This document shows, one piece after another, positions 12,548 to 39,446 of a stretch of 64,000 nt of DNA. The translations under genes and the position numbers were made by a program. The notes beneath the pieces are model-generated. The model was not told the origin of the DNA and ran no database searches. It saw nothing but the letters and a program-made list of their open reading frames with translations. This stretch comes from a virus. Lineage: Duplodnaviria; Caudoviricetes. The stretch is taken from the IMG/VR virus record IMGVR_UViG_3300037424_001585, positions 3,952 through 67,951 of that record; one strand, written 5' to 3'. Position 1 is the first letter of the stretch. Every line of letters begins with the position of its first letter.

Positions 12548-13777
12548 GTGGCCGCGCCGAATCTCCAAGCCCAAGGTGCGACGGCGACCGGCGTCACGAC
12601 CGGGGTGCCGTCGATCGCGATTCCCACCCACCAGGCGGATGACATCCTGGTGGTCACGGCCATCATCTGGGCACCCAACACCACAACGCCAGACGCGGCG
12701 CAAATCCCCACCCCGTCTGGGTGGACGCTCCTCAGTACGCAAATTCCCCAGCCTGCCGCGTCTCCGCGCAATGGGTGGCTGGCGTGTTTCTGGAAGCGGG
12801 CGACAGGCGCGGGCACCACTGTTACCCTGACGCGCGGTACGGGCTGGGATACGGGGAACGATACGTGCTTCAACGGCCGGGCCTACGTCATTCGCGGCTG
12901 CATCGCCACCGGCGACCCCTGGGATGCGGTCGCGATGAGCATTGCCCGCACCATCGCCAACCAAGCCTGCGCCGCCGTCACGGTCTCGGGTGCTGAGCGG
13001 ATGGTCGTGCAGTTCGGGTGCTCGACCGACAACGCCGCCTTCGCCATGACCTCGGCGGGCTGGACGATCGGCACCGAGGATGATGATGCGGGCGGCACCG
13101 ACAGCGCCTTCCAGACCGCGCGGAAGGATAACGTCTCTGCGAGCACGACGGCCGATGCCATGACCTGCGCGGCGCCCGCTCAGGGATTCTATGGGTTCTT
13201 CGGCGTCTCGTTCAAGCCGCCGGTGGCGGCGATTGCGGGCGAGTTGAGCAAGGCGGTGGCCATTGCGCTCTCCGCCGCCGGCGCCGTGCTTGTGCAGGGC
13301 ACGCTCAATACTGCCCTGGCGTTGAGCCTGTCCGCGGCCGGGACGATCCCCGCGCAAGGGGTGTTGAGCCAAGAGGTTCCGCTTAGCCTCTCCGCCACTG
13401 GGGCAGTAACGGACGCAGGGGTTGTTGGTGATCTCTCGCAGGCGCTTGCACTGACACTCTCTGCTGATGGCGTTGTTCTTGTCCAGGGCAGTCTCGCGAG
13501 TACGGTGGTGGTCGGCGTCACCGCTGATGGGGATGTGCTGATCGCTGGAAGTCTGGCACAGGTCCTCCCTCTTTCGCTCGTCGCAGACGGTGGGGTGATT
13601 ACAGGTGGAGCCGTGCAACAAGACCTCCCTCTGTCCCTCGATGGAACTGGAGTGGTTCTTGTGACAGGCGCACTGAGTTCTACGCTCTTGTTCCAGCTTG
13701 GTGGAAGTGGTGGAGAGCCTGCTGGGTACGCTATCGCCCGCGCACGCCGGTTGTACCGCTTCAAGTACCGAGGATAG
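12548..13777 (+). CDS. fibre-like protein with ~20-aa repeats
   Basis: GTG start; C-terminal half has about 8 imperfect G.L...L.LSLSA.G.V repeats. Confidence 0.55.
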   Translation: MAAPNLQAQGATATGVTTGVPSIAIPTHQADDILVVTAIIWAPNTTTPDAAQIPTPSGWTLLSTQIPQPAASPRNGWLACFWKRATGAGTTVTLTRGTGWDTGNDTCFNGRAYVIRGCIATGDPWDAVAMSIARTIANQACAAVTVSGAERMVVQFGCSTDNAAFAMTSAGWTIGTEDDDAGGTDSAFQTARKDNVSASTTADAMTCAAPAQGFYGFFGVSFKPPVAAIAGELSKAVAIALSAAGAVLVQGTLNTALALSLSAAGTIPAQGVLSQEVPLSLSATGAVTDAGVVGDLSQALALTLSADGVVLVQGSLASTVVVGVTADGDVLIAGSLAQVLPLSLVADGGVITGGAVQQDLPLSLDGTGVVLVTGALSSTLLFQLGGSGGEPAGYAIARARRLYRFKYRG

Positions 13778-27822: not shown

Positions 27823-28398
27823 TTAGGGTTTCCCCCCTGCAATGGGGAGAGCCGTGGAGAGTATGGCTTTTAGAGCAGCCCTACAGATAGCGAGCGGGGC
27901 GGTCCCTGCCCACGAGGCGGTAAGGTTCCCGCGAAAAGCGAGACCGTATTCGTCCTCCGCCAGACCCTGAACATCAATGGTTTTCTTGCCGACCCACCGC
28001 ATCTCCCACCGCTCACCTCGCACCTTCTCCACCACCTCCCACGCGGCGGCGATGTCGGTGCTGTAGGGCTTCACTTCGCTGGCCTGAAAGATGCGCTTTT
28101 TGTGGGTCACACAGCGCCATGTTTTGCCGTCATCGTCGATGAAGACAGAGGACCCTTTCGTCGAGTCCGTAAGCCATGAGCTGTCATGCGGGCATCGACA
28201 GGTGTCGAATATATACTCATGTACCAGCGCATCCAGTTCCCGCCCCGCAGGCAGGGCGTCAATCTGTTCGGGAGTCATGGGCTCACCCGCCGCTGGGCCT
28301 CCCGCAGCGCCCGCGTCCACGCTTTCCGCATCCGCACCCACCGACATGGGGAGAGACGCATGCTCTTCCGCATCTTCGAGATATATCCACCAACTCAT
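27823..28398 (-). CDS. phage ABA-sandwich domain protein
   Basis: AGRELDALV...YSTDIAAAWEVVEK...TAPLAICRAALKA signature. Confidence 0.75.
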   Translation of the reverse strand: MSWWIYLEDAEEHASLPMSVGADAESVDAGAAGGPAAGEPMTPEQIDALPAGRELDALVHEYIFDTCRCPHDSSWLTDSTKGSSVFIDDDGKTWRCVTHKKRIFQASEVKPYSTDIAAAWEVVEKVRGERWEMRWVGKKTIDVQGLAEDEYGLAFRGNLTASWAGTAPLAICRAALKAILSTALPIAGGKP

Positions 28399-28592
28399 AA
28401 CTCCCCCATTCTCGGGACCTCAACCACCCGCCAGCCCAGCATCAGCCATCGCGCGACCAGGGCAGGACCAGGGATCGGCTCCCATCCACGAAGGTTTCCT
28501 CCAACGAATTTGGCGCGCTCGATGGCCAAGCCCGCCTGCTGCAACGCTCGCTCTATCTTCGCCCCTAACACCGCTTGTTCTTGTGCGTTCAT
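28395..28592 (-). CDS. hypothetical protein
   Basis: Coupled 65-aa ORF with GGAGGG RBS. Confidence 0.5.
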   Translation of the reverse strand: MNAQEQAVLGAKIERALQQAGLAIERAKFVGGNLRGWEPIPGPALVARWLMLGWRVVEVPRMGEL

Positions 28593-29479
28593 AGTCCCTC
28601 CACGAGACGCTCCACCGTCCCCGTTGACGCGATCATTCCCGCGTGCAGGTACCGTTTCAACCGCTCTCGCTCCCCCGGCGTGAGCTTCCGAGGATTACAG
28701 CGATGCAGCATCCGCCAGCGCGTAATCGCCTCCCCCAGGATGTTCTGCTTGCAGAAGGGGAGGAGGGTTTTCTCGTCCTGTTGCAGCACAATCGGCTGCG
28801 GCTTGATCCCGCAGTTGTTCTTGGTCGTGGACAAGCGCAAGTACTTCCCGTTCTCCTCCAGGTGCCACGCGGAAATGACCAAGTTGATCCATCCCTTCAT
28901 CCCCGAGAAGGCTTCACGCGGATCGAGGAGACCTTGTGCGCTCGCCTCCGTCACTTTCTTATCGTGGTGGACAATGACGTGCGCGCTCTCCGGGAAGAGG
29001 TGCTGCATCTGACCGTACACGATCCCCGGCACATGCTCCTCCTCCCGCAGGTGCTCGACCGCACGCAACACGTCCCAAATGACCAAGCACGGATTCGTGT
29101 CCCGCAACTGCCCCGTGAGTGCATCGTCGTCGTCCAAGCGCATCACATCAAAGAAGGGCGGGCAGTAGTGATAGAGCGGGAGCCCGCGCACCCACGGCCA
29201 CAGCTTGCACAAGCGGTCAATCCGGTCCCGATGGAGAATCTTGGGGAGGTCGGCTTGGATATAGAGCACGCTCCGACGCGGATGTGCTTGCCACGTCCCG
29301 AAGAGATGGCTCTCCTCCAACACCGCGAGTGCGAGCCCGAGCGCGGTCACACTCTTCCCCAAACCCTCGCGCCCATGAAACAAGAGCTTCGCCCCCACCG
29401 GCAGGAGGTTGTCCAACACCCACCGATACGCGATCCGCTCTTTGAGGAGTTCGTCGGTCGTATAGAGATCATCGGGCAT
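28589..29479 (-). CDS. RepA/AAA_25-type (RecA-fold, SF4-like) helicase, no primase domain
   Basis: WVLDNLLP..., Walker A GREGLGKS, VLYIQAD, Walker B LVIWD, VIVHHDKK. Confidence 0.8.
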   Translation of the reverse strand: MPDDLYTTDELLKERIAYRWVLDNLLPVGAKLLFHGREGLGKSVTALGLALAVLEESHLFGTWQAHPRRSVLYIQADLPKILHRDRIDRLCKLWPWVRGLPLYHYCPPFFDVMRLDDDDALTGQLRDTNPCLVIWDVLRAVEHLREEEHVPGIVYGQMQHLFPESAHVIVHHDKKVTEASAQGLLDPREAFSGMKGWINLVISAWHLEENGKYLRLSTTKNNCGIKPQPIVLQQDEKTLLPFCKQNILGEAITRWRMLHRCNPRKLTPGERERLKRYLHAGMIASTGTVERLVEGL

Positions 29480-29498
29480 GCCGGAAGCGCCTGGTGCG

Positions 29499-32483
29499 TC
29501 ACTCCTTCCATGTGGACATGGAGCCCCACGCACCCCCCACCGTCCCGATCTTGGCCTCGGTCGGGATGTGCAACCGCCGCCCGCGCACCACGAAGGGCGC
29601 TTCCATCACACGCTTGGTGAAGCGCAGAGACTCCGGGAGGTATTGGGGAAGAGCTTGCCAATCGAGTTCATCATGGTTCTGGTGGAACAACTCGATCTCG
29701 CCTTGTCGATCAAGCTCGTCATGCACCATAATGATCGCCTGGTTCATCAACCACGCGACGGTGCTGGAGGGGAAGAAGGCAAGCGCATCCTTCAACCGAT
29801 TGTGCTCATCAGGATCACGGAGCGGGCGGCAGTATCCGAAACAGTTCTGCACGATCCCGCGATTGTCGGTGATGGCCTGCGCGACCTCCTGCCACCACGT
29901 CTTCAGAGGATGGAGGCTGTAGAGCACATCTTGGAAGTGCTGCACTTCTTTCTCCGTGGTCCGCTGGCCATGGATCGCGTAGTCCTTGTTGAAGGTCACC
30001 ATCGCCGTGCGGGCGGACCCGGAGTAGATCGAGTTTCCTGTAAGCGTGATCGTTCGACCCTGACGCATGACCCAAAAGCCTGTTGTGGTGCGCGGGCACC
30101 AAACCGCTTGCGATCTGCGCGCTGTGACCTTCAGCTTTTGTGCCGTGACCCACGGCTTCCCCCACCGCACGTTGCGGTTCCTAACTCCTGTATATGGCGA
30201 GACTACTCCAGCGGATTCGCTGGGATAGTGCCCAGAGAGAAAGATGGCGAGCTTGATAGCATCTAACGTTTCTCCCTCGTTCTGTGAACAGACCTGCTTT
30301 CCTTTTGAGAGCCAGCCTTCCGCTCCGTGGAAACCCTTGAGCAAGCGATTGCGCTGAATACGAGTCATCGCTAAAACGATCTGTTCTTTCGTGAGGTAGT
30401 CTCCACGCACCCGTTCCCACAGCCGTTGGGAGTATGCCCCTCGAAGGATGAATGTCGTTAGTGAGCGCTCTCTGCCGCCGTATCGCCGTTGTCGATGAAC
30501 ATGGTGCGGAATCCGCTTGAGCAGGAAGCGTAGACGCTTCAGCCCAGCCGGTTTTGCTTGGTACAATCGAAGTTCGCACTTCACGCGCTTCCCGCCAGCT
30601 TGTGCTGTTGCTCCGACATACTTACCACGAAGGATTGAACCGTCACCCCATAACCAGCCGAGCAATTCCGCCTCCAACGGCGTGATGTCGAGACTCTGCT
30701 CCTGCTCGAAAACCGCTGTGCGAATGATCTCATCACGCATGCAGTTGAGGGTTGCCGCTGTAACTACATGGGGAAACTTGTTTCGACGTTCATGGTGGTA
30801 GCGAGTTCCGGCCCAGCGATGGTTCGGCGTGCATTCAACAGCGAATCGTGTGTTTGCTACGCGGACAACAGGGGCCTTTTGATAATGGTAGACCTTGGTG
30901 ACGGTGTCCCACACAAGATTTGCGCCGTTGTATCCAACCACCATCTCGCCAACACGGATTTCATCATGCCGCTTCCACCCTGTGGACGTGAGAATCTCTG
31001 TTCGTTCGGGCACGCAGAGGAACCCTAGGTTCTTGCTCGTGACGTACACCTTGGGGTGCAGGGTTTTCACCTCGCTCGCCTTGCAGGAGAGATGGAAAGC
31101 TTCTTTCGCGTGTGTGCCGTGCGCGCTCTCCCCCTTGAGCATCCGGTCGATCCATTCGGTGTCGCCTGCGTAGGCCCAGCACAAGAACATCTCCGCACCA
31201 GCGTAATCCCGGCTTGCCAATTGGAATCCCTCATCTGCGCACATCACCCCGCGCGTGTCGTAGAGCGGGTCCATCGTGGCGATCTTGTTCGCCTGATTCT
31301 GGAGATTCGTGTTTCCGGTGACGCAGATACGTCCGTGCCTACGGACAAGGAAGTATGAGGTCTCAGTAGTCACACAGTACACCAAGCCACAGTGCGCCGA
31401 CCGTTGGAAGTGTTTCGCCTCTGACCAAAGAGCGCTACGCGGCTTGATGGCCACAGTGTACAGAGGTTGCGCAGTGTGCTCACCATAGCTCCCACGATTC
31501 CGATTGGCGCAGACGCGGATGCTTGCTGAGTATCCGGTTAGATGCGCAGTTGTCGCTATCCATTCCGCATTCTCACGGAGCACGGTGAAGTACATCCAAC
31601 TGCGGCTGCGACGTGTCGCGTCCCAGAATTGTGTCTCTTCAACAAACGCACGAAGCGCAGGGAGCGGCCACGAAAGCAGCCATGCCCCATATTGTTTCTC
31701 TCGACCGAGCCACCGCAGCATGAACTGCGCGCCGTCCGGGAGATAAAACCGCGTGTATCCCTTGGGTACTCCGCCGCTTGTCGTCCACCACTTCCACCCG
31801 GCTTCATTCAACAAGCGCTTGAGACGGCGCACCTTTCGACGCTTTTTGAATTGCCAGCGCAGCGAGCGGAGGCTGCCCTTACAGAATGATCCATCGGCCT
31901 GAAATGCGGCAAGCAGTCTCGCCTCAGTGACGGAGATTTCTGCCACACCGCCTTGATACCGTCCGCTTACCGGAAGCAGACAAGCACGGAAGTGCGCAAC
32001 GGTATCGGCACGATCCTCACGCCAGTCTCTATCTTTGGCGTTGCGGTATGGGACACGGTGACTCGGCGTGTACGCTAGTTGATGGAACCACGATTTCGCC
32101 TCAAGGAGTTCCCCTGTGAAATGCGCTCGGGTCAACGGCGCATCCTGGCACCACGAGAGCGTATCGTCCGGGGACCATTGCAGAACAGTGGTCGGGCCTT
32201 TAAGATGATCGAATCTTGTCCATCCTGTAGGGGTGAGTACCTCTGCATCCCCAGTTAAGCACATGGCTTCTTCCGTGATTCCTCCTGAAGAGGCCAAGCG
32301 CATGTTCGTGGTCGCGACGGAGAGATTGGTATGCACGCGTCCATCGCTGCCGGGACGAAGCCGGTTCAACATCCCGTGGATCGTCCGGTCCCGCTTCCCG
32401 CGCTGGATCGGGGTGAGGACTTCGCGCACCAACTGCTTGCGCGCGGGAAGGGAGGCGAGATGGTCACGGAGGGTGGTGGTCAT
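29499..32483 (-). CDS. polA: DNA polymerase family A, C-terminal (thumb-fingers-palm) part, with two inteins
   Basis: DGRVHT..., RLASS..(intein)TNLQN, motif A DYAGAE, motif B KNLGFL(intein)SIYS, motif C HDEL; ATG overlaps the upstream stop. Confidence 0.9.
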   Translation of the reverse strand: MTTTLRDHLASLPARKQLVREVLTPIQRGKRDRTIHGMLNRLRPGSDGRVHTNLSVATTNMRLASSGGITEEAMCLTGDAEVLTPTGWTRFDHLKGPTTVLQWSPDDTLSWCQDAPLTRAHFTGELLEAKSWFHQLAYTPSHRVPYRNAKDRDWREDRADTVAHFRACLLPVSGRYQGGVAEISVTEARLLAAFQADGSFCKGSLRSLRWQFKKRRKVRRLKRLLNEAGWKWWTTSGGVPKGYTRFYLPDGAQFMLRWLGREKQYGAWLLSWPLPALRAFVEETQFWDATRRSRSWMYFTVLRENAEWIATTAHLTGYSASIRVCANRNRGSYGEHTAQPLYTVAIKPRSALWSEAKHFQRSAHCGLVYCVTTETSYFLVRRHGRICVTGNTNLQNQANKIATMDPLYDTRGVMCADEGFQLASRDYAGAEMFLCWAYAGDTEWIDRMLKGESAHGTHAKEAFHLSCKASEVKTLHPKVYVTSKNLGFLCVPERTEILTSTGWKRHDEIRVGEMVVGYNGANLVWDTVTKVYHYQKAPVVRVANTRFAVECTPNHRWAGTRYHHERRNKFPHVVTAATLNCMRDEIIRTAVFEQEQSLDITPLEAELLGWLWGDGSILRGKYVGATAQAGGKRVKCELRLYQAKPAGLKRLRFLLKRIPHHVHRQRRYGGRERSLTTFILRGAYSQRLWERVRGDYLTKEQIVLAMTRIQRNRLLKGFHGAEGWLSKGKQVCSQNEGETLDAIKLAIFLSGHYPSESAGVVSPYTGVRNRNVRWGKPWVTAQKLKVTARRSQAVWCPRTTTGFWVMRQGRTITLTGNSIYSGSARTAMVTFNKDYAIHGQRTTEKEVQHFQDVLYSLHPLKTWWQEVAQAITDNRGIVQNCFGYCRPLRDPDEHNRLKDALAFFPSSTVAWLMNQAIIMVHDELDRQGEIELFHQNHDELDWQALPQYLPESLRFTKRVMEAPFVVRGRRLHIPTEAKIGTVGGAWGSMSTWKE
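30033..31016 (-). mobile_element. intein 2 (328 aa) with LAGLIDADG endonuclease, inserted in PolA motif B
   Basis: Starts CVPERTEILTSTGW; block B CTPNHRW; LLGWLWGDG and LLKGFHGAEG; ends CPRTTTGFWVMRQGRTITLTGN followed by Ser. Confidence 0.9.
31311..32261 (-). mobile_element. intein 1 (317 aa) with LAGLIDADG-type endonuclease, inserted before TNLQN
   Basis: Starts CLTGDAEVLTPTGW; TPSHRV; LLAAFQADG; ends CVTTETSYFLVRRHGRICVTGN followed by Thr. Confidence 0.9.
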
Positions 32484-32638
32484 CCTAGCACGCGCGCCGA
32501 GACAACGCACGTTGTCCCATCCCCGAGATGTACGATGATCTCCTCAAGGTGATGGTACGTAGCGCGCTCAGTATCCTTCACTTCTGGTCGCGCGCGAAGA
32601 CTCTCCTCCAGCAAGGTGAGTATGTCGTGCTTGTCCAC
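32480..32638 (-). CDS. hypothetical protein (52 aa) coupled to PolA-C start
   Basis: GAGGTGA RBS, GTG start; its stop overlaps the ATG at 32483. Confidence 0.5.
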   Translation of the reverse strand: MDKHDILTLLEESLRARPEVKDTERATYHHLEEIIVHLGDGTTCVVSARVLG

Positions 32639-32640
32639 GC

Positions 32641-32817
32641 TCACCTCGGGCTCGGTTGGCCATGCCGTTGCTCGCTCACCTGTCCCCGCACATCCACCAA
32701 CTCCCACTCCTCGGGCTGGCACCCCTCGTGGTAGTAGGAGGCGATCCGCCGCGCCTCTCCCTCTTCGTCCGCGACGACTTCTTCCACCACAGGTGGGTGT
32801 CTGAACACGTAGATCAC
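32641..32817 (-). CDS. hypothetical protein (58 aa, not in ORF track)
   Basis: Hand-translated MIYVFRHPPVVEEVVADEEGEARRIASYYHEGCQPEEWELVDV...; GTGA overlap with upstream stop. Confidence 0.45.
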   Translation of the reverse strand: MIYVFRHPPVVEEVVADEEGEARRIASYYHEGCQPEEWELVDVRGQVSEQRHGQPSPR

Positions 32818-33155
32818 GCTTCCTCCTGGCCTATGAGCCTGCCGGTGTTGGTCTCGACCTGGATACAGCGGTCATCGTACAGCACGAGCATCTCGACATC
32901 CTTGCTCGCGGTGATCGGAAGGACCTCCCCGAGATACTGCTTGCACCAGCGCTGGATGAGGACGCGTTGCCGCGCTCGCTCCTTCCCTTTGACGGCGACC
33001 CGCGCGGTTACAATTCGTACGTCTTGGCCCTCCGCGAGCCAGGTCTTCACGCGCTCGGCCATGGTGCGCACAGGGAGACCGATGTTTGTGATGTCCTGCG
33101 CATCGCTGTAGTACGCGAGTGTACCGTCTAAATCCACCCCGATCCACCCGTTCAT
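32814..33155 (-). CDS. HAD-superfamily phosphatase (Pnk-phosphatase-like)
   Basis: WIGVDLDGTL, IVTAR, LYDDR motifs. Confidence 0.75.
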   Translation of the reverse strand: MNGWIGVDLDGTLAYYSDAQDITNIGLPVRTMAERVKTWLAEGQDVRIVTARVAVKGKERARQRVLIQRWCKQYLGEVLPITASKDVEMLVLYDDRCIQVETNTGRLIGQEEA

Positions 33156-33319
33156 CGCTTCCGCCTCCCGAGCCTCCCCGCACGCCTGCACGCGACACAC
33201 GTTACTTGGTCCGCGTCCGTCGTCCCTCGCTTCGCGGGTTTCGCCTGGGGACGCAGGCCGCGCCCGCACACCACACGCTTCCCCGCGAGGAAGTGGGTCT
33301 TAGAGTCATGTTGGGTCAT
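33152..33319 (-). CDS. small Zn-finger protein, paralogue B
   Basis: KTH...VC...GTTDADQVTCVACR; similar to 34351-34572. Confidence 0.6.
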   Translation of the reverse strand: MTQHDSKTHFLAGKRVVCGRGLRPQAKPAKRGTTDADQVTCVACRRAGRLGRRKR

Positions 33320-33602
33320 CGCGCACCTCCTCGTACGACAGCACAAAGATGTCAGGCTTGCACGGGTACAGTTCGCCCTGCACGCCGCGAATAATCCAGT
33401 CATCAGTACTGACGATCAAGTTGCCTTCGAGTGTGTGGATCACGAGCGACGAGGCAACTGGGTAGAGTGCGCCCACCGTCTCGAAGCCCTTCTGCCACGC
33501 GGCGTGCAGCCATTCTGGCCAATCCACGTTGCTAGCACGATGCTCTGCCGTCATCTGGAACGCCTCGATCACGGCCGGACGTTTACGAAAGCAGTGGTTC
33601 AT
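33306..33602 (-). CDS. conserved small phage protein
   Basis: RKRPAVIEAFQ...IHTLEG...DWIIRGVQGELYPCKPDIF pattern; related to 61840-62088. Confidence 0.7.
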   Translation of the reverse strand: MNHCFRKRPAVIEAFQMTAEHRASNVDWPEWLHAAWQKGFETVGALYPVASSLVIHTLEGNLIVSTDDWIIRGVQGELYPCKPDIFVLSYEEVRDDPT

Positions 33603-34354
33603 GGGTTCCCTCTAGGTGTTTTGTCCTCCGAATTCCCCTTCTTCGTGGACGGCGTGAGCAGGAGCATGACCTTCCCGGCCCCGATCTCCGTGAGTCCCGC
33701 GACCCCGTGCTTGGTGCTTACCATTTCCTGAAGGCTCTTTTCAGCCTGCCGGAGTTGTTCAACCACAAGGAGCAGGCCGTGCCAAAGTTCGGGAGTATAG
33801 GGAAGCACCACCTTGTCTCCCCGCCCCTTGAAGCATGGGAAGCTGAACGGTTTGTCCCCATAGACTAACTCAGCCTTTGGTCCCTTCCCGTACTTGTCAC
33901 TCTGCGCATACCGCTCGTTCTCCGGGACGCAGGTCGGACTCTCCTCGTCGCACTGGTCCCAGCGCAAATCACGCCACTCGCGCTGATCCCGTGTGAGTGC
34001 GATCCAATACCGTCTGATAGTGAGGTCGAACCCCGCAGTGTGTTTCTCGGTCTCATCCCGATAGCTGTGGTGATCCGTACCTCCACTGCCGTACTCGATC
34101 TCAACAGCAGGGAGCCATTCGAGTCGATCCTCGGCGGTGGTGTGCGCGAGTTGCTTAAGCAGCCAGTCTCGCACCTCGCCGCCATCCTTGGACGCAAAAG
34201 GTTCGGTGAGGAGATCGGTGTCATTCTCCCGCGCGAAGAACCACATGCCACCCTTATCGAGCCGAACGACTCCCGTGCGCTTGGTCTTGGGATGCTCGAC
34301 CCGCTCGATGATGGCGCCCTTGTACTTGCGCCCGTGATAGGTTCTGGGTCTCAC
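33599..34354 (-). CDS. hypothetical protein
   Basis: GTGA overlap start; about 250 aa. Confidence 0.6.
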   Translation of the reverse strand: MRPRTYHGRKYKGAIIERVEHPKTKRTGVVRLDKGGMWFFARENDTDLLTEPFASKDGGEVRDWLLKQLAHTTAEDRLEWLPAVEIEYGSGGTDHHSYRDETEKHTAGFDLTIRRYWIALTRDQREWRDLRWDQCDEESPTCVPENERYAQSDKYGKGPKAELVYGDKPFSFPCFKGRGDKVVLPYTPELWHGLLLVVEQLRQAEKSLQEMVSTKHGVAGLTEIGAGKVMLLLTPSTKKGNSEDKTPRGNP

Positions 34355-34572
34355 GCGTGCATCCTCTTTCCCAGCTTCCCCACCTTCCGGCACGCGACAC
34401 AGGTCACCGCGTCAGGATCGGTCGTTCCGTACTTCGCCTGCTTTGTGCGTGGAAGCTTTCCGTGCTCGCAGACAGGTTTGTTGGGATAGAGGTAGTGAGT
34501 CTTATTCTTGGTCTTCACTTCCGTGCCCCTCCCTCTGCCCAGATCATGAGCCGTCAGCGAACGTGTTTCCAT
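34351..34572 (-). CDS. small Zn-finger protein, paralogue A
   Basis: KTH...VC...GTTDPDAVTCVACR. Confidence 0.6.
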   Translation of the reverse strand: METRSLTAHDLGRGRGTEVKTKNKTHYLYPNKPVCEHGKLPRTKQAKYGTTDPDAVTCVACRKVGKLGKRMHA

Positions 34573-35219
34573 GAATAGTATTTGCTATTCGTCATAACAG
34601 CGCCGAGTGTGACTGTAGAAACACCGTACTGTTTGGCAAGGTGGCGGCTTAGCGTTCGCAACGCACGAACGTCTTTACTTGTGAGGATGCTGTGCATTCT
34701 CCCTCGTTGTACTGCCTCACGTATGTTCTCTTGGTGCGTGCCTAGTCGCAGATGCCTAGGATTCACGCACCGAGGATTGTCGCACTTGTGCAGGATGAAC
34801 AGTCCGTTGGGAACTGCTTTTCTCCCTGTCGCAAAGTACCAAGCTACACGATGTGCCCGTTCCGGCTTGCCAGTCACACCTGTCGAACCGTACCCATGCG
34901 AGGCACGACCGCCAGTCCACCACCAGCACTTGCGAGTTTTCTCCACCCGCATCCAAAAAGCGTATGCTGATTCTGTGAGACAGAGATGCGATGGGCGAAC
35001 ACAGAGTGGTTCACCGCACACCCGCAGAACTTTGCTTTTTCGCGTCAGTGTACGGCGCAGCACTCGCCGCCAAACAAAGAGATGAGCATGCTGATTTTTG
35101 TAGAGCCCTGACGGTGTGGTGTGCGCAAAATCTGCTGCTCCTAGCCATAACCAACACGAGCGAGTCTTTTGCACGTAGGACCAGAAATTGGCATAGCGCA
35201 CCGCAACCCTCCTAGACAT
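34554..35219 (-). CDS. HNH homing endonuclease (duplicated HNH_3-like unit) overlapping the PolA-N stop
   Basis: CWLWLG and CWWWTG repeats; AHRVAW; LHKCDNPRCVNPRHL; C-terminal helix-turn-helix. Confidence 0.85.
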   Translation of the reverse strand: MSRRVAVRYANFWSYVQKTRSCWLWLGAADFAHTTPSGLYKNQHAHLFVWRRVLRRTLTRKSKVLRVCGEPLCVRPSHLCLTESAYAFWMRVEKTRKCWWWTGGRASHGYGSTGVTGKPERAHRVAWYFATGRKAVPNGLFILHKCDNPRCVNPRHLRLGTHQENIREAVQRGRMHSILTSKDVRALRTLSRHLAKQYGVSTVTLGAVMTNSKYYSWKHVR

Positions 35220-36921
35220 TTTGGCTACTCCACAACAATAATCGTATGGTAGCCATTTCGTCCATATGTGTCTTCCCCTTGAACACCCACTGCGGAGCGC
35301 CGACATGTTGGTAGAGCAACAAGGAGAGCTGATCCCGAGAAAATGGATTGAAGACCCATCGTGAGGTCTTACCGTTGCCTCTGCACGTCCGGCACGGCGG
35401 CAGGAAGTCCTTGAGATCGCTGACTCGTGTCGCATCGAGGTGTTCCTGACGGATCACGAAACTGGTCCCGTCTGTGCGCGCCTTCGCTCCGAGGTACTCG
35501 ATCTTGCGTTTGGGCATGGCGGGGAGCCCGGCACAACGCCAGCAACGTGATCCCGCGCCGTTGCAACAGGCGCATTGCTTCGTTTTCTTGAAGTCCTCGA
35601 TCTGATGCTCCTCGATGTACGCGAGCGCGGCCTTCGCGGAGAGGGCCTTGGCTTCCTCCGCGCGGGCGTGCAAGGTCTGCATCCGCTCCACGCGCAGTTT
35701 CTCGTCAATCGGCCAGCCTCGGCGCGTCATGGTGATGCAGCGGAGATTCGTCTCGAAGGCGAGGCGGTACTGCGGCTCCCGGTGCTGATGCTGGACTTCT
35801 TTCCACAACGCATCCCACCGTCGCCGGGTCACATAGCTATCCCGCCCCGCCATGACGTAGAGCAGGGCAAGATCATTGGGATCGTCACTGTCTTCAGGAG
35901 GATAGCCAGAGACCCAATCAGGAAACTCAGGACGATGCCAAGCACTCTTCCACCAGGGCACATTGAGACCATGATCCCCTCCGATCCCAATCGTCGCGAT
36001 GGACGCCAAGCCTTTGCGGGTCAGCCGTCCCTTGTCCTCCTCGTCATGGAAGGCAAGCTCCGGTTCCAGCCCGTTCCCCCAGGCGGTCTGGGTATCGTCG
36101 GTGTAGAGAGCAGTCGGGAAGCCATCACGATCTAGAATGTCCACGTCGTACTGACCGTTGTGCGCAACGCCTCGAAGCCCTTTCCGTCCCGCGAGCACTT
36201 CCCGCATCCATCGGAAGCCCTGCCCGTATTTCGCGACATACGGTTGAAGCGAATCGCCTGTGAAGCCACAACAAAACGCTTTGCCGCCGAACCGTGTTTC
36301 GATGTCGAACGCAAGAGCGGTGTTCGTGAGAAGCGCCTGCGCGATTGTGGAGGAGGAGAGCGTGCGCACCTCGGGGAACTCCTCGCGGGGGAGTTTCCCC
36401 TGGAGCCATGCTTTCGCCCGCCCCCAATCTCTCCGCAAGAGTTCATACCCCGGCACGATCTTCCGCGCGGCGCCTGCTGGATGAAGAATCGTGTAGACCC
36501 AGCCAACCTTGCTCTCCCAGAAGTACCCGCGCCGATCCTCGATCCCCTTCGCGCCGAAGATATCTCTCCCACCTGTGGGCCAGTCAGGGACAAAGTGATA
36601 CGCGGCCTCATTCCCCATCGTGATGATGAGCTTGGGCTTGAGGCGCTTGACGAGCTTATCCAGTGCGGCACGTCCGGCGGCGACATCTTCCGGCCGGTGC
36701 CGCTTGAAGTCATCGCCAGGAGGGCGGGTTTCTGGGACCACGTTGGTGAGGTTCAGGTCCTCTCTTCGGAATCCTCCGTAGCTCGCGACCTCATCGTGGA
36801 GTTGTCCGGCCGGACCAATGAGGGGACGCTCTTCCGCCTCCTCGTACTCCCCGTAGTCCCGCGCGACGACAAGCACTTGTCCTGGCTTGTCCACGTTGAT
36901 CTCCGCGCCGTGGGCGATCAT
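35212..36921 (-). CDS. polA: DNA polymerase family A, N-terminal part: UDG-like + 3'-5' exonuclease + thumb with Zn finger
   Basis: PLIGPAG, LTNVV, PKLIITMG, LHPA (UDG family 4-like); FDIET, AHNGQYD, GRDS (Exo I-III); RGWPID; FNPFSRDQL. Confidence 0.88.
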   Translation of the reverse strand: MIAHGAEINVDKPGQVLVVARDYGEYEEAEERPLIGPAGQLHDEVASYGGFRREDLNLTNVVPETRPPGDDFKRHRPEDVAAGRAALDKLVKRLKPKLIITMGNEAAYHFVPDWPTGGRDIFGAKGIEDRRGYFWESKVGWVYTILHPAGAARKIVPGYELLRRDWGRAKAWLQGKLPREEFPEVRTLSSSTIAQALLTNTALAFDIETRFGGKAFCCGFTGDSLQPYVAKYGQGFRWMREVLAGRKGLRGVAHNGQYDVDILDRDGFPTALYTDDTQTAWGNGLEPELAFHDEEDKGRLTRKGLASIATIGIGGDHGLNVPWWKSAWHRPEFPDWVSGYPPEDSDDPNDLALLYVMAGRDSYVTRRRWDALWKEVQHQHREPQYRLAFETNLRCITMTRRGWPIDEKLRVERMQTLHARAEEAKALSAKAALAYIEEHQIEDFKKTKQCACCNGAGSRCWRCAGLPAMPKRKIEYLGAKARTDGTSFVIRQEHLDATRVSDLKDFLPPCRTCRGNGKTSRWVFNPFSRDQLSLLLYQHVGAPQWVFKGKTHMDEMATIRLLLWSSQNV

Positions 36922-37169
36922 GGATTTCGTTTCCCTACCGCTTCACGTAGTGCGCGATAGAGCAGGTCCCACGGCCCAAGGCGCGATCGTGGGAAGTTTT
37001 GCACGCTCCCCTGTTTCCACACGCCCGGTCGTCCGATGTGCTTCATCACCTTGAAAGTGTAATGGCCGTTCGTTGGCGTGCCGGACCCATCATTGGCAAT
37101 GGTGAGCACACCTTTCTTCTCGACCTCCCCAGTGCGCGCGGAGTGAACCTCGATGCGGACGACGATCAT
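36918..37169 (-). CDS. conserved hypothetical phage protein
   Basis: IANDGSGTPTNGHY...FPRSRLGPWDLLYRAL; coupled. Confidence 0.65.
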   Translation of the reverse strand: MIVVRIEVHSARTGEVEKKGVLTIANDGSGTPTNGHYTFKVMKHIGRPGVWKQGSVQNFPRSRLGPWDLLYRALREAVGKRNP

Positions 37170-37414
37170 GGCGACTCAAAGCCCCGCAGGGCATTCAGCT
37201 TGGGCATCAACAGGTTGTATGCCTCATGCAGAAGCGGGGTCCCTACCAAGTACCGCGCATTGTGCTGCGCCGCGAAGATCGCCTCTGGCAAAGAGACATC
37301 CTCCAATAAGCCCATCACCCCCACCCCTGCCGTCGCGACCACCTTGAGCACAATCGCCTCGTGCTCGGTCATTGTGAGTTGGACGAGGCGAATCTCAGGA
37401 GAAGGAGCGGTCAT
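37166..37414 (-). CDS. hypothetical protein
   Basis: Coupled 82-aa ORF. Confidence 0.5.
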   Translation of the reverse strand: MTAPSPEIRLVQLTMTEHEAIVLKVVATAGVGVMGLLEDVSLPEAIFAAQHNARYLVGTPLLHEAYNLLMPKLNALRGFESP

Positions 37415-39096
37415 CGCAGGTCCTCTGCAAGCTGAAGCACGTCGTTGTTCCTGCCGGTGATGACTCCTGCCGTGCGCAACGTCGAGATACGATTGCGGAA
37501 CCCCCCACCCCAGGCGTATCCCGCCGCCTCCGCGAGGTCCGGGCCGGTGAGCCCTTCGCGGTGGTCCGCAAGTGCTTGCAGCGCCGCTCGCTCAGCCTTA
37601 CCGAAGCGCCGATTGTTGAGCCAATAGGTGAGCAGGTCGAGGCCAGGAGCGGGGAGCGGCTCGATCTCCCCGAGTACTTCACGTCCTGCCTCAGTAATCC
37701 GCATAATGCCGGTGTTCTCACCAATCAGCCAGCCATTCGTGCGACAGGTCGAGATACGATTCCGAAAGCCACCACCCGCGCGGTATCCTGCGAGGAGCGC
37801 GAGTTTTCCAACATTGCAACCTTCGGGATACTGCGCCAGCACGGTGAGCATGGCGCGTTCGGCTCGACCGGGACGCCCATCTTGTGCTGAGGCGATGACC
37901 TCCGCATGCGCGCGTGCTTGTCTTGGCGTAAGAAGCTGGCGTTTCTCGGAGGTGGCGATGGCGCGAACCGCCGGTGGTGTGTTGACTGACCGCAAAGATT
38001 GTCGCGCGACACCACGCAGCGTTGTCTCCAAGGAGGCAAGCTGTTCGGCTAACGGCTTCCACAGCTTCCTTCCGCGCTCTAGCATGCGCTCGATCCGTGC
38101 AGTCTGAGCATCTCTCACGACCGACACTTCGACCCGTTTCTCGATCACTTTCTCCTTGGTGACCGTTCCCCGCCCGTGTTGCAAGAGCGTTAATTGGCGG
38201 CGTGCATCCACAAGATCACGCTTGAGGTCCTCGACGGTGCGTGTCACCTTTTCCGCTTCCGCAGGCAGGTCTGCGAGCTTCGGGAGCAGCCGCTTGATCT
38301 TCGCAGTCGGCGGCGGCGGGGTGAACGCCAAGCGCGCTCCTGCTTTGGGGTGCGTGGTCTGCACGCTCCCGATCTTGACCTTCTGGACCTCGATCGAAAG
38401 CGCCGGGCCGAAGCCGAAGAACTCGCCGGGGTTGAGTTGGCGGAGACTGTACGACTGCTCCTTCTCTGAGAACCCCAGTTCCTCAGACGCGCGTTTGCGA
38501 TCCACGTCGAGCCCCGTCCGCCCGATGAGCTTGTTGTTGAGTTCCGCCGCCGCGTCCTTGTGCAGCTTGGAGAGCCGTTGCGTCGCGAGGACCGCGCAGA
38601 ACCCGCGCTTCCTCCCTCTCGTACACAGGTCGATCACCGCGCCCGCGCTCTCCGCCTCTCCCTTCTGGGGACAGTAGACATGCGCTTCGTCCACCACCAC
38701 CAGCACCGGATGCCAGAGCTTCTTGGGCGCGTCCACCAAGGCTTCAAGGAAGAGCCGGACGAACCGTACTCGCTCGTGCGCCTTGAGTTCGTAGATGTCG
38801 AGGATGGCTGAGGTCCTGAGTTCGAGCAGACGTTCCGCGAGGAGCTTGGCCGCGCGCGGGTCCGCCGCCGTATCCCCTCCCTGTTTGGAGGCAAGCACGT
38901 AGTCGAACTTCTCCCGCAAGGTCGCGAACTCTCCTTCGGGATCGAGGACGAGTTGCTGTACCTTTCCATGCGTCTGTTCCAGCACGCGCCGGAGGAGCCA
39001 GGACTTCCCTCCCCCACTGTTCGCTTGGACAAGGAGCCGCGTGTCGATCAAGGTCGGGAGATCGCATGGAGCCCCACGTCCGAGGTGTACAATCAT
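37411..39096 (-). CDS. HerA/FtsK-superfamily (DUF87-like) ATPase with tandem C-terminal winged helices
   Basis: Walker A ANSGGGKS, Walker B VVVDEAH, ATQR; duplicated AGY..GGGFRNRIST.RT.G unit; ATGA overlap at 39096. Confidence 0.8.
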   Translation of the reverse strand: MIVHLGRGAPCDLPTLIDTRLLVQANSGGGKSWLLRRVLEQTHGKVQQLVLDPEGEFATLREKFDYVLASKQGGDTAADPRAAKLLAERLLELRTSAILDIYELKAHERVRFVRLFLEALVDAPKKLWHPVLVVVDEAHVYCPQKGEAESAGAVIDLCTRGRKRGFCAVLATQRLSKLHKDAAAELNNKLIGRTGLDVDRKRASEELGFSEKEQSYSLRQLNPGEFFGFGPALSIEVQKVKIGSVQTTHPKAGARLAFTPPPPTAKIKRLLPKLADLPAEAEKVTRTVEDLKRDLVDARRQLTLLQHGRGTVTKEKVIEKRVEVSVVRDAQTARIERMLERGRKLWKPLAEQLASLETTLRGVARQSLRSVNTPPAVRAIATSEKRQLLTPRQARAHAEVIASAQDGRPGRAERAMLTVLAQYPEGCNVGKLALLAGYRAGGGFRNRISTCRTNGWLIGENTGIMRITEAGREVLGEIEPLPAPGLDLLTYWLNNRRFGKAERAALQALADHREGLTGPDLAEAAGYAWGGGFRNRISTLRTAGVITGRNNDVLQLAEDLR

Positions 39097-39446
39097 GCCG
39101 TCTTCCTCCGTCTCCGCTTCATCCGCTGGTTTGCGATCTTGAGCGCACTCTGCAAATGGATCGCGTGCCCGCACAAGGTGGTCAAACATGCATGATGGAC
39201 TTCATGGTCCGGGGGGATTTCCCCTTTGTACTTCTGGTACATCACGCGGTGAACGAGTTCCAGCTTCCCATCCACCCTCACCACTCCGTACTTGTCCCCG
39301 TTCTTGTTGGTGATCGTGGCCCCCAGCCAAATCCAACAGGTTCCCACCACCTTGAACTTGTACGGGGGGAGCATCGGGGCGCGGTAGGAGACCTTGCACC
39401 CATGTCGTGGGAGGGGGAGCCGGAGTTGGAGGGCGGGCGCGCTCAC
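39093..39446 (-). CDS. HNH endonuclease (HNH_3-like)
   Basis: CWIWLG, YGVV, VHRVMY, VHHACLTTLCGHAIHL. Confidence 0.75.
   Translation of the reverse strand: MSAPALQLRLPLPRHGCKVSYRAPMLPPYKFKVVGTCWIWLGATITNKNGDKYGVVRVDGKLELVHRVMYQKYKGEIPPDHEVHHACLTTLCGHAIHLQSALKIANQRMKRRRRKTA

Follow-up and report, generated by a model that had tools for sequence, protein, structure and literature searches.

Family A DNA polymerases (PolAs) are known from textbooks as single-chain enzymes and serve as workhorses of biotechnology. Split phage PolAs have been published, and their cut lies either at the exonuclease-polymerase domain boundary or just ahead of motif A (PMC10201439, PMC3890496, PMC10580990). The exonuclease-polymerase split, described in a 2023 survey as the first one seen in PolAs (PMC10201439), represents gene fission in the T7-like cyanophage PolA (S-SBP1-like and S-TIP37-like clade B; Czernecki et al. 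2023, PMC10201439; PMC12695635), where the two products, modelled as a complex with AF2, superpose on a relative that is not split. LUZ24-like Pseudomonas phages carry genes named 'DNA polymerase part I' and 'part II' (UFV-P2 table, PMC3890496), and a split PolA is also found in the OM43 phages MEP401 and MEP402 (PMC10580990; record OP830906). UDG-PolAs are single polypeptides of 800-900 aa (Czernecki et al. 2023). Two other kinds of gene interruption bear on the present case: group I introns with endonuclease ORFs reside in phage DNA polymerase genes, as cited in PMC10580990, and 'fractured genes' combine a split intein with a free-standing endonuclease between gene halves (Dassa et al. 2009, PMC2677866).

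We analysed a window of 64,000 nucleotides from an uncultured sediment phage (record of 67,951 bp, CheckV 100% complete) in which the original prediction, made from the DNA alone, had placed a replicase made as two maintained halves, each translated on its own and divided at the thumb tip. Our data support this view. With a probability of roughly 80%, the sole recognisable DNA polymerase of this phage is an inherited, obligate two-subunit UDG-exonuclease-PolA whose seam serves as a landing pad for accessory genes and an HNH endonuclease. Indeed, PF00476 matches the whole 67,951-bp record at this locus only, and no PolB match occurs anywhere in it. Both predicted ORFs were found on the minus strand, separated by a measured 2,728 nt, in line with the ~2.7 kb originally noted. 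The features of the two halves and of their downstream neighbour are as follows.

35212..36921, minus strand: N-half gene, an ORF of 569 aa (PF03167, E=1.5e-10)
36460..36879, minus strand: family-4 UDG-like domain, aa 15-154 of the N-half (Pfam PF03167; alignment to 4zbx and 1ui0)
35374..35574, minus strand: Cys-rich thumb insertion, aa 450-516 of the N-half
35212..35256, minus strand: N-half tail (13 residues) and stop codon, conserved in P0003, L004 and L006-L009
29499..32483, minus strand: C-half gene, a 994-aa precursor with 349 aa of exteins; PF00476 matches at its C-terminal end
28589..29533, minus strand: AAA_25 (RecA/DnaB-like) ATPase gene, directly downstream of the C-half (PF13481, E=4e-12)

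The N-half comprises, in order, the UDG-like domain, a 3'-5' exonuclease, thumb helix H, the Cys-rich insertion, helix H1, the thumb tip and a short terminal helix. A profile of N-half homologues matched the family-4 UDG structures 4zbx (E=6e-26) and 1ui0 (E=6e-24) and, weakly, the Klenow exonuclease region. The Exo I motif DIE follows the UDG-like domain at residues 206-208, so that one protein carries both the UDG-like domain and the exonuclease, as in UDG-PolAs sensu Czernecki et al. 2023. The catalytic Asp and Glu residues of Exo I and II are invariant in homologue alignments, and 53 of the 57 clusters of N-half homologues measure 492-590 aa. Within the Cys-rich insertion, which is probably zinc-binding, C450, C453, C510 and C513 are invariant and C452, C460 and C463 nearly so among 22 homologues.

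The C-half holds thumb helix I, the palm and the fingers, and contains DGRVHT, TNLQN and motif A in addition to motifs B and C. By fold and by sequence profile the enzyme belongs to the PolA family: the family profile matches Klenow residues 13-604 (E=1e-88), and HMMER aligned C-half residue 10 with residue 226 of the KlenTaq chain. The catalytic residues D426 and E431 (motif A), K484 and Y820 (motif B) and H937-D938-E939 (motif C) are invariant in alignments. The claim that motifs A, B and C are intact was not confirmed, since motif B itself is cut by an insertion and becomes contiguous only after protein splicing.

Both halves are maintained, as had been proposed: their frames are open, their catalytic residues are kept, and dN/dS against relatives is 0.08-0.28, values well below 1 that serve only as a rough upper bound because dS is saturated, exceeding 1.2 or being undefined for every pair. 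At the amino-acid level, identity to relatives ranges over 0.64-0.68 in the N-half and 0.59-0.67 in the C-half. A pattern scan of viral_contigs with the N-half found no close relative, and neither the C-domain nor the fused relative P0065 exceeds ~27% identity to any cultured phage polymerase.

The seam was mapped by pairwise BLASTP against unsplit relatives, because the MAFFT alignment A4, which mixes full- and half-length sequences, misplaces some terminal residues. A search for such relatives, suggested along with the original prediction, yielded P0065, which the window halves tile end to end: N-half residues 1-569 correspond to P0065 1-551 and the C-half exteins to P0065 553-870, with nothing missing or duplicated. 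The halves of loci L004 and L010 tile P0065, P0066 and P0078 likewise. A direct junction of DEMA in the N-half to TLRDHL in the C-half, as originally envisaged, was not confirmed: the alignment to P0065 takes in the N-half over its full length and reaches residue 551 with the tail ATIRLLLWSSQNV, which is kept in relatives without the HNH gene. The 13 residues are the genuine N-half end, made of conserved thumb sequence rather than of read-through into the HNH gene; N-half residue W564 is conserved in at least 90%.

An AF2 model of the unsplit P0065 (pLDDT 93.2, pTM 0.88) gave Foldseek TM scores of 0.83 to the Bst and M. smegmatis Pol I. The seam in this model is loop 547-554 (pLDDT of the seam stretch 74-78), which connects a short helix (536-546) to a long one (555-585); the cut is thus predicted to lie in a flexible loop past the thumb tip, just before the long descending thumb helix I. 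The boundary at P0065 551/553 is inside the thumb, some 345 residues beyond the Exo I motif DIE at 207. Helix 392-424, which precedes the Cys-rich insert, belongs to the part corresponding to the N-half, the region equivalent to the insert sits between helices H and H1, and helix 555-585 belongs to the part corresponding to the C-half. Because the cut runs through the thumb and not between domains, neither chain is a complete polymerase domain. On the model of the fused relative, the two long helices of the thumb would associate in trans, so that the halves would be obligate partners.

The order of N-half then C-half is the same in eight of eight loci, whereas the gap between them measures -28, -8, 204, 326, 1466, 1546, 2599 or 2728 nt, the last in the window, and its content differs wholly as well. 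In L004 and L006, which are ~45% identical to the window, the halves lie side by side, with an overlap of 28 or 8 nt. A gene of the AAA_25 family lies just downstream of the C-half in L004 and L006-L009, with at most two small ORFs between. The frame offset between the halves is 2 in L004, 1 in L006 and 0 in L010, which has an intervening ORF. Programmed frameshifting across the overlap of adjacent genes was considered and rejected, since this offset varies by locus and the halves of the window and of L002 are kilobases apart.

In a tree of the C-domain, one clade of 47 tips (cluster representatives; support 0.99) contains 29 split, 7 fused and 11 unclassified forms, and 48 fused and 2 split forms fall outside it. 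Parsimony requires 7 changes with a split ancestor versus 9 with a fused one, on a tree in which some node supports are 0.58-0.73. As seven fused forms lie within the split clade, several independent fissions are conceivable, and the gene may have been cut repeatedly at a permissive loop instead of once.

The gap in the window contains six clear ORFs, the HNH gene included, and a seventh only if a 73-aa ORF at 34351-34572 is counted. The clear ORFs are listed below.

34554..35219, minus strand: free-standing HNH_3 homing-type endonuclease, 221 aa (PF13392, E=1.3e-16; phrog_1872, E=1e-32)
33599..34393, minus strand: ORF of at most 264 aa, no family match
33306..33602, minus strand: ORF of 98 aa, phage family of unknown function (phrog_419, E=1.7e-23)
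32814..33269, minus strand: ORF of 113-151 aa depending on the start, with a DxDxT motif (phrog_415, E=2.2e-6)
32641..32817, minus strand: ORF of 58 aa, 69% identical over 32 aa by tblastx to the L002 gene at 13339-13506
32480..32722, minus strand: ORF of at most 80 aa whose stop overlaps the C-half ATG (ATGA)

The 58-aa ORF is the only clearly mapped gap gene common to the window and L002. The ORF at 32814..33269 weakly resembles the phosphatase part of polynucleotide kinase. Where the gap ends, the ATG of the C-half at 32483 does overlap the upstream stop as ATGA, as originally described, and the two halves would be co-transcribed. A scan of 29300-37300 for promoters and terminators returned sites no more numerous than in shuffled sequence, which speaks neither for nor against separate transcription.

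Two large in-frame insertions in the C-half had been overlooked.

31311..32261, minus strand: intein 1, aa 75-391 (317 aa), immediately before TNLQN
30033..31016, minus strand: intein 2, aa 490-817 (328 aa), in motif B (O-helix), between NLGFL and SIYSG

Both are located exactly between conserved extein residues and are absent from six orthologues, three of them in the boundary alignment; the six intein-free C-half orthologues align at 326-361 aa. Intein 1 starts with CLTGDAEVL, carries a LAGLIDADG-like motif and ends in VTGN followed by Thr; intein 2 starts with CVPERTEIL and ends in LTGN followed by Ser. Each thus has Cys1, a TxxH block B (TPSHR or TPNHR), a terminal Asn and a Thr or Ser at +1. 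The usual intein end is His-Asn, and in both inserts the penultimate residue is Gly. The splicing ends of intein 2 are conserved in an insert at the same site of P0060, and intein 2 shares 26% identity with the N-terminal region of intein 1 (E=8e-6). The inserts matched nothing in Pfam at E<=1 or among PDB sequences; their PHROG matches fall on internal parts of intein-bearing families. Their language-model (Atlas) neighbours, with scores of 0.91-0.96, are LAGLIDADG_3, Hom_end_hint and Intein_splicing for intein 1 and LAGLIDADG, Hint and intein clusters for intein 2. From insertion geometry, boundary residues and these neighbours, the two insertions are probably LAGLIDADG-type inteins, both of which would be splicing-competent. 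Three insertion sites were seen directly in the family and further ones are implied by HMMER coordinates.

How the gene came to be split had been explained by an HNH gene that inserted into an intact PolA in this lineage, after which the split was fixed and further genes accumulated. The HNH gene does begin exactly where the N-half ends, its ATG at 35219 overlapping the N-half stop as ATGTCTAG; the DNA does turn AT-richer after DEMA (GC 0.51-0.55 over ~34500-35400 versus ~0.60 in the flanks), the HNH gene being low in GC; and HNH-mediated gene splitting has a precedent in Aeh1 nrdA, reportedly split by mobE. Even so, this origin of the cut must now be regarded as very unlikely. The same cut occurs in seven relatives, none of whose gap genes matches the HNH family, the halves of L004 and L006 overlap with nothing between them, and the N-half tail beside the HNH gene is conserved polymerase sequence. 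Because the cut, the N-half tail and the C-half head are all present in the seven HNH-free loci, the HNH gene is a later arrival in an already existing gap. An ancient mobile element may have made the original cut and later been lost. We see still less prospect for a joining of the halves by a large intron, a trans-splicing RNA or a split intein, even though phage DNA polymerase genes host group I introns with endonuclease ORFs and in 'fractured genes' a free-standing endonuclease lies between the halves of a split intein (PMC2677866). An Rfam scan of 28000-38000 on both strands found no intron or other RNA family at E<=1, so neither a group I nor a group II intron was recognised; the gap is full of ORFs, several with overlapping start and stop codons, and differs completely in content and length among relatives. 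Moreover, the N-half ends in conserved extein and a stop, and the C-half starts with its own start codon and conserved extein; since both termini are extein sequence, they leave no room for an N-intein of ~100 aa or a C-intein of ~35 aa. RNA-level joining, which had already been rated the less likely alternative, is therefore unlikely here too.

The two proteins might also not form one enzyme, the N-half being a lone UDG/exonuclease factor and the C-half inactive or bound to another partner. The exonuclease and polymerase modules of PolA are separate proteins in other phages (PMC10201439, PMC3890496), kilobases can separate the genes, and nothing in this genome obviously couples their stoichiometry. 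Such a separation of functions is improbable, given that the cut through the thumb leaves neither chain with a complete polymerase domain, that the halves stay together in the same order in all eight loci and evolve at similar rates, and that no second polymerase was found in the genome. As for an assembly artefact or a dying gene, the genome is a metagenome assembly, and its source run X1 is not independent, unlike X2, X3 and X4. Misassembly at one junction or decay of the polymerase gene is nevertheless scarcely credible: contigs of three other studies read through the two junctions and the boundaries of the inteins with 0-4 differences (X2 record 4 over 31145-32915, X3 records 16 and 17 over 35045-35348, X3 record 14 and X4 record 23 across 32483), independent assemblies of relatives have the same layout, and both genes show the open frames, catalytic residues and low dN/dS described above. 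One X2 contig skips 1,244 nt within the gap, from 33271 to 34514, where direct repeats sought to explain the skip were only short ones at chance level.

We thus favour the two-subunit enzyme, with the following history. A single cut of the gene would have occurred early in the history of a large clade of uncultured phages, with the halves inherited since then as separate, translationally coupled genes. The N-half would contribute the UDG-like domain, the proofreading exonuclease, helix H with the Cys-rich insert and the thumb tip, and the C-half helix I, palm and fingers. In the subclade of the window, the seam would have become a landing pad for accessory genes, with HNH a recent arrival here; separately, two LAGLIDADG inteins would have invaded the C-half at the conserved TNLQN and motif B sites. 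To become active, the enzyme would then have to be translated as two chains, spliced twice at the protein level and assembled non-covalently.

The clade shows that a cut through the thumb is tolerated and has been kept for long periods in nature, and the thumb-tip loop, as a permissive split site, could help split-polymerase engineering or reporters. In automated annotation the N-half will be labelled simply 'uracil-DNA glycosylase', the name that JGI gives to relatives, and the C-half will pass for a truncated polymerase. The locus further illustrates, in compact form, how selfish elements (two inteins and one HNH endonuclease) pile onto an essential gene, in a family whose intein-free, one-intein and two-intein members are available for comparison. 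A bolder reading, which we consider doubtful though conceivable, is that the cut makes the replicase modular, with a UDG/proofreading/thumb-tip subunit and a palm-fingers subunit made, dosed or exchanged separately in the manner of DP1/DP2 of PolD or epsilon/alpha of Pol III, and the intergenic DNA a clade-wide 'safe harbour'. If this were true, accessory genes and homing endonucleases could land there without killing the phage, and together with the intein sites the family would form a natural test set for probing how much fragmentation a PolA tolerates before it no longer assembles.

Compared with the described systems, the window polymerase resembles the cyanophage split in that a family A replicase is inherited as two genes through fission and not through frameshifting or splicing. 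The cyanophage genes, however, are adjacent and cut between the exonuclease and polymerase domains, whereas the window enzyme is cut in the polymerase domain at the thumb tip, has a UDG-like head and carries 2.7 kb of other genes between its halves. The long gene-filled gap has a precedent in LUZ24-like phages, whose PolA genes are ~2.1 kb apart with ~ten small ORFs between (PMC3890496). There, with a 171-aa exonuclease as part I and a complete polymerase domain of 546 aa as part II, the cut is a domain boundary, unlike the boundary inside the thumb seen here, and no UDG domain or inteins are reported. MEP401 and MEP402 share with the window a cut in the polymerase domain, with a small ORF between the halves in a layout common to many metagenomic relatives. 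In MEP401 the break comes after NLQN and before motif A, with the NLQN motif (NLQNF...) near the end of gp13 and motif A at the beginning of gp15. This is ~100 residues downstream of the window cut, which precedes DGRxHT and NLQN, and MEP401 is without a UDG domain. The window enzyme shares its N-terminal family-4 UDG-like domain, exonuclease and PolA with the UDG-PolAs (N4-like cluster 17; SPO1, SP-10, SP-15 type), but these are single-chain, whereas the window polymerase is encoded in two genes and its N-half gives only one weak match, to an unannotated fecal contig, among 50,697 phage records. It falls outside N4-like PolA cluster 17, and no phage match to P0065 covers more than 48% of its length. 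As in 'fractured genes', a conserved enzyme gene is in two pieces with a homing endonuclease gene between; unlike there, no split-intein fragments occur at the seam, where the extein termini tile an unsplit relative with a one-residue gap, and the inteins are contiguous and elsewhere in the C-half. Split phage polymerases were already known, and the present case is a variant of them, not a new principle.

The 67,951-bp IMG/VR virus record, most of which is covered by the window, was rated complete by CheckV and carries its replication module on the minus strand; the window sequence occurs in runs from sediment and soil metagenomes. A UDG-exonuclease-PolA is encoded there by two genes separated by 2,728 nt, the second of which contains two predicted inteins:

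35212-36921, minus strand: N-half, 569 aa, with a family-4 UDG-like domain (PF03167, E=1.5e-10)
29499-32483, minus strand: C-half, 994 aa from its ATG, matching PF00476 at its C-terminal end only
32261-31311, minus strand: predicted intein 1 (C-half aa 75-391), directly before TNLQN
31016-30033, minus strand: predicted intein 2 (C-half aa 490-817), inside motif B

When compared with structures, a profile of N-half homologues matched family-4 UDG (E=6e-26); its match to the exonuclease region of Klenow was weak. Start and stop codons overlap at both ends of the gap: the C-half ATG shares ATGA with the stop of the small ORF before it, and an HNH_3 gene begins with an ATG that overlaps the stop codon of the N-half in ATGTCTAG. 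Because PF00476 matches this locus only in the whole genome and a genome search for PolB found none, the split PolA is the only recognisable replicase of this phage.

The polymerase halves belong to a conserved module in which the C-half is followed directly by an AAA_25 ATPase gene (28589-29533) and the N-half is preceded by the gene of a 592-aa HerA/DUF87-like ATPase (37411-39189); PDDEXK_1 and AAA_24 genes upstream are also retained in relatives. A 63%-identical relative has a Phage_integrase gene (L007:16350-17564) near its replication module, so some members of the phage group may be temperate. Another related locus encodes a 552-aa TROVE/vWA_Ro60 protein (L004:17239-18897; Ro60-like RNA-binding) a few kb downstream of the polymerase.

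The split is very unlikely to be a misassembly, since contigs from runs of three other studies span both junctions and the intein boundaries with 0-4 differences (for example, record 4 of run X2, 31145-32915, and records 16 and 17 of run X3, 35045-35348). In one contig of X2, an independent run, 33270 is joined to 34515, and the 1,244 nt skipped contain two gap ORFs (264 and 98 aa); the HNH gene flanks this stretch on one side and a DxDxT-motif ORF on the other. The skipped stretch is present in other X2 contigs, the skipping contig has just 43 nt on one side of the joint, and a search for a direct repeat flanking it found none. The contig hints at polymorphism of gap content in the population.

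Unsplit relatives, a search for which had been suggested by the original prediction, were found in P0065 (883 aa), P0066 (914 aa), and P0078 (837 aa). The N-half aligns over its full length to residues 1-551 of P0065, and the C-half exteins, left after removal of the two predicted inteins, align to residues 553-870. As judged from these alignments, the halves thus tile the intact enzyme without loss or duplication. P0065 was modelled with AlphaFold2 on a 63-sequence alignment (pLDDT 93.2, pTM 0.88), and the model has a standard PolA fold, with TM-scores of 0.83 against the Bst and M. smegmatis Pol I structures. In the model, a long helix (392-424) is followed by a Cys-rich insert, a helix carrying the FNPxS..Q motif (510-520), a loop (521-535), a short helix (536-546), a second loop (547-554), and a long helix (555-585), then DGxxxT and TNLQN. 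The seam at 551/553 lies inside the second loop; residues 521-560 are the lowest-confidence stretch of the polymerase domain (pLDDT 74-78). In a HMMER alignment, residue 10 of an intein-free C-half falls on position 226 of the KlenTaq chain (540 residues), which we take to correspond to about Taq 518, where thumb helix I starts, immediately past the thumb tip. Both the alignment and the model therefore bear out the thumb tip as a description of the cut. The exact seam originally proposed, DEMA joined to TLRDHL with the last 13 N-half residues as read-through into HNH-derived DNA, was off by these 13 residues: they align to P0065 and are kept in relatives having no HNH gene there, and of 22 homologues at least 90% retain W564.

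Seven conserved Cys residues (CxCC, CWRC, and CxxC groups; 35374-35574, N-half aa 450-516) are inserted in the thumb before the FNPxS helix. Invariant or nearly so in the 22 homologues and present also in fused relatives, they probably form a zinc module. In the UDG-like domain (36460-36879, N-half aa 15-154), the match begins only at residue 35 of solved family-4 UDGs, and the sequence of the first motif is ARDYG, with GRDPG as the family consensus, as opposed to GEAPG in 4zbx, the structure aligned with it. The UDG-like domain may thus have altered catalysis or a purely structural role, as has been proposed for N4-like enzymes (Czernecki et al. 2023, PMC10201439).

The length of the C-half, 994 aa against 326-361 aa in its orthologues, is explained in alignment by two exact in-frame insertions. 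Each has an initial Cys, a TxxH block, LAGLIDADG-like motifs, and a TGN end followed by Thr or Ser; their N-terminal regions share 26% identity (E=8e-6). Language-model neighbours of both belong to LAGLIDADG, Hom_end_hint, and Intein_splicing clusters (scores 0.91-0.96). Since Pfam and PDB sequence searches with either insertion gave no match and the penultimate residue of both is Gly, where inteins usually have His, we can only infer that they are spliced. Intein 2 lies between residues that we equate with Klenow F762 and Y766, so that motif B, previously described as intact along with motifs A and C, is interrupted at the gene level; both inteins had been overlooked. Intein 2 shares conserved splicing ends with the insert at this site in the relative P0060, and the two differ in their middle part. 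This polymerase family is an intein hotspot: P0003 (L009:4552-7023) has an intein in its N-half between FNP and SRDQL, P0044 has a Hint-LAGLIDADG insert (aa 323-494), and further inteins of the C-half are placed near profile positions 90, 110, and 170 by HMMER coordinates only; relatives with inteins in this polymerase also include P0060, P0068, P0077, and P0097.

Both halves are maintained, as originally supposed. Amino-acid identities to the closest relatives are similar (0.64-0.68 for the N-half, 0.59-0.67 for the C-half), dN/dS estimates are 0.08-0.28 with synonymous sites saturated, and the alignments show no variation at the acidic residues of Exo I and Exo II or at the key positions of motifs A, B, and C.

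The cut parts the two long helices of the thumb, so that, of the helices of the P0065 model, 392-424 belongs to the N-half and 555-585 to the C-half. From the tiling and this model, neither half would contain a complete polymerase domain, and the two would have to associate into one enzyme. Both genes would be translated separately, the two inteins excised and the three exteins ligated, and the spliced C-half would assemble non-covalently with the N-half into the active enzyme. Co-transcription is plausible because the genes are tightly packed on the same strand; a scan of the locus for consensus promoters and terminators gave no informative signal. Joining of the halves at the RNA or protein level is unlikely, in agreement with the original ranking of RNA-level joining: Rfam returned no ribozyme family match in 28000-38000, both termini at the seam are extein sequence, and the gap is variable among relatives. 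Programmed frameshifting in relatives with adjacent genes is also unlikely, as frame offsets between the halves differ among loci.

The split is widely inherited. The N-half has homologues in 57 clusters, the most distant at 31% identity. Lengths are 492-590 aa in 53 clusters and greater in three, two of which carry insertions elsewhere; the remaining cluster is a fragment. All seven related loci examined (L002, L004, L006-L010) have an N-half followed by a C-half of 326-361 aa; the gaps, window included, measure -28, -8, 204, 326, 1466, 1546, 2599, and 2728 nt. None of the seven has an HNH gene in the gap, which argues against the proposal that HNH insertion made the split; the low-GC HNH gene is a recent arrival. 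Gap contents are mostly unrelated among loci (an RNA ligase gene in L002, HTH and DUF4031 genes in L008), and the gaps of the window and L002 resemble each other in short stretches only, of which the best corresponds to a single ~55-aa gene.

An exhaustive HMMER search with the C-half profile (E<=1e-30) gave 96 cluster representatives, and 113 C-domains were placed in a FastTree tree. A clade with support 0.99 comprises 47 tips, of which 29 are split, 7 fused, and 11 unclassifiable; outside it are 48 fused and 2 split forms. Parsimony slightly prefers a split ancestor of this clade (7 changes versus 9 for the alternative). The likeliest history would be one early fission, occasional re-fusions, and later gap growth in the window's subclade. 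PolA relatives of 490-530 aa (P0091, P0093, P0096, P0105, and others), with a C-domain match from residue 160-215, may consist of the polymerase domain only, which would mean an additional cut elsewhere in the gene, or may be gene calls that are truncated; they were kept unclassified in the tree.

We found no published description of a thumb-tip cut in a UDG-PolA. UDG-PolAs and exonuclease/polymerase fission in T7-like cyanophages have been described (Czernecki et al. 2023, PMC10201439). LUZ24-like phages have genes annotated as polymerase "part I" (an exonuclease of 171 aa) and "part II", with about 2.1 kb and some ten small ORFs separating the two (PMC3890496). The polymerase domain itself is split in the OM43 phages MEP401/402 (PMC10580990), where gp13 ends after NLQN and gp15 begins at motif A, a different site from the thumb-tip cut of the window.
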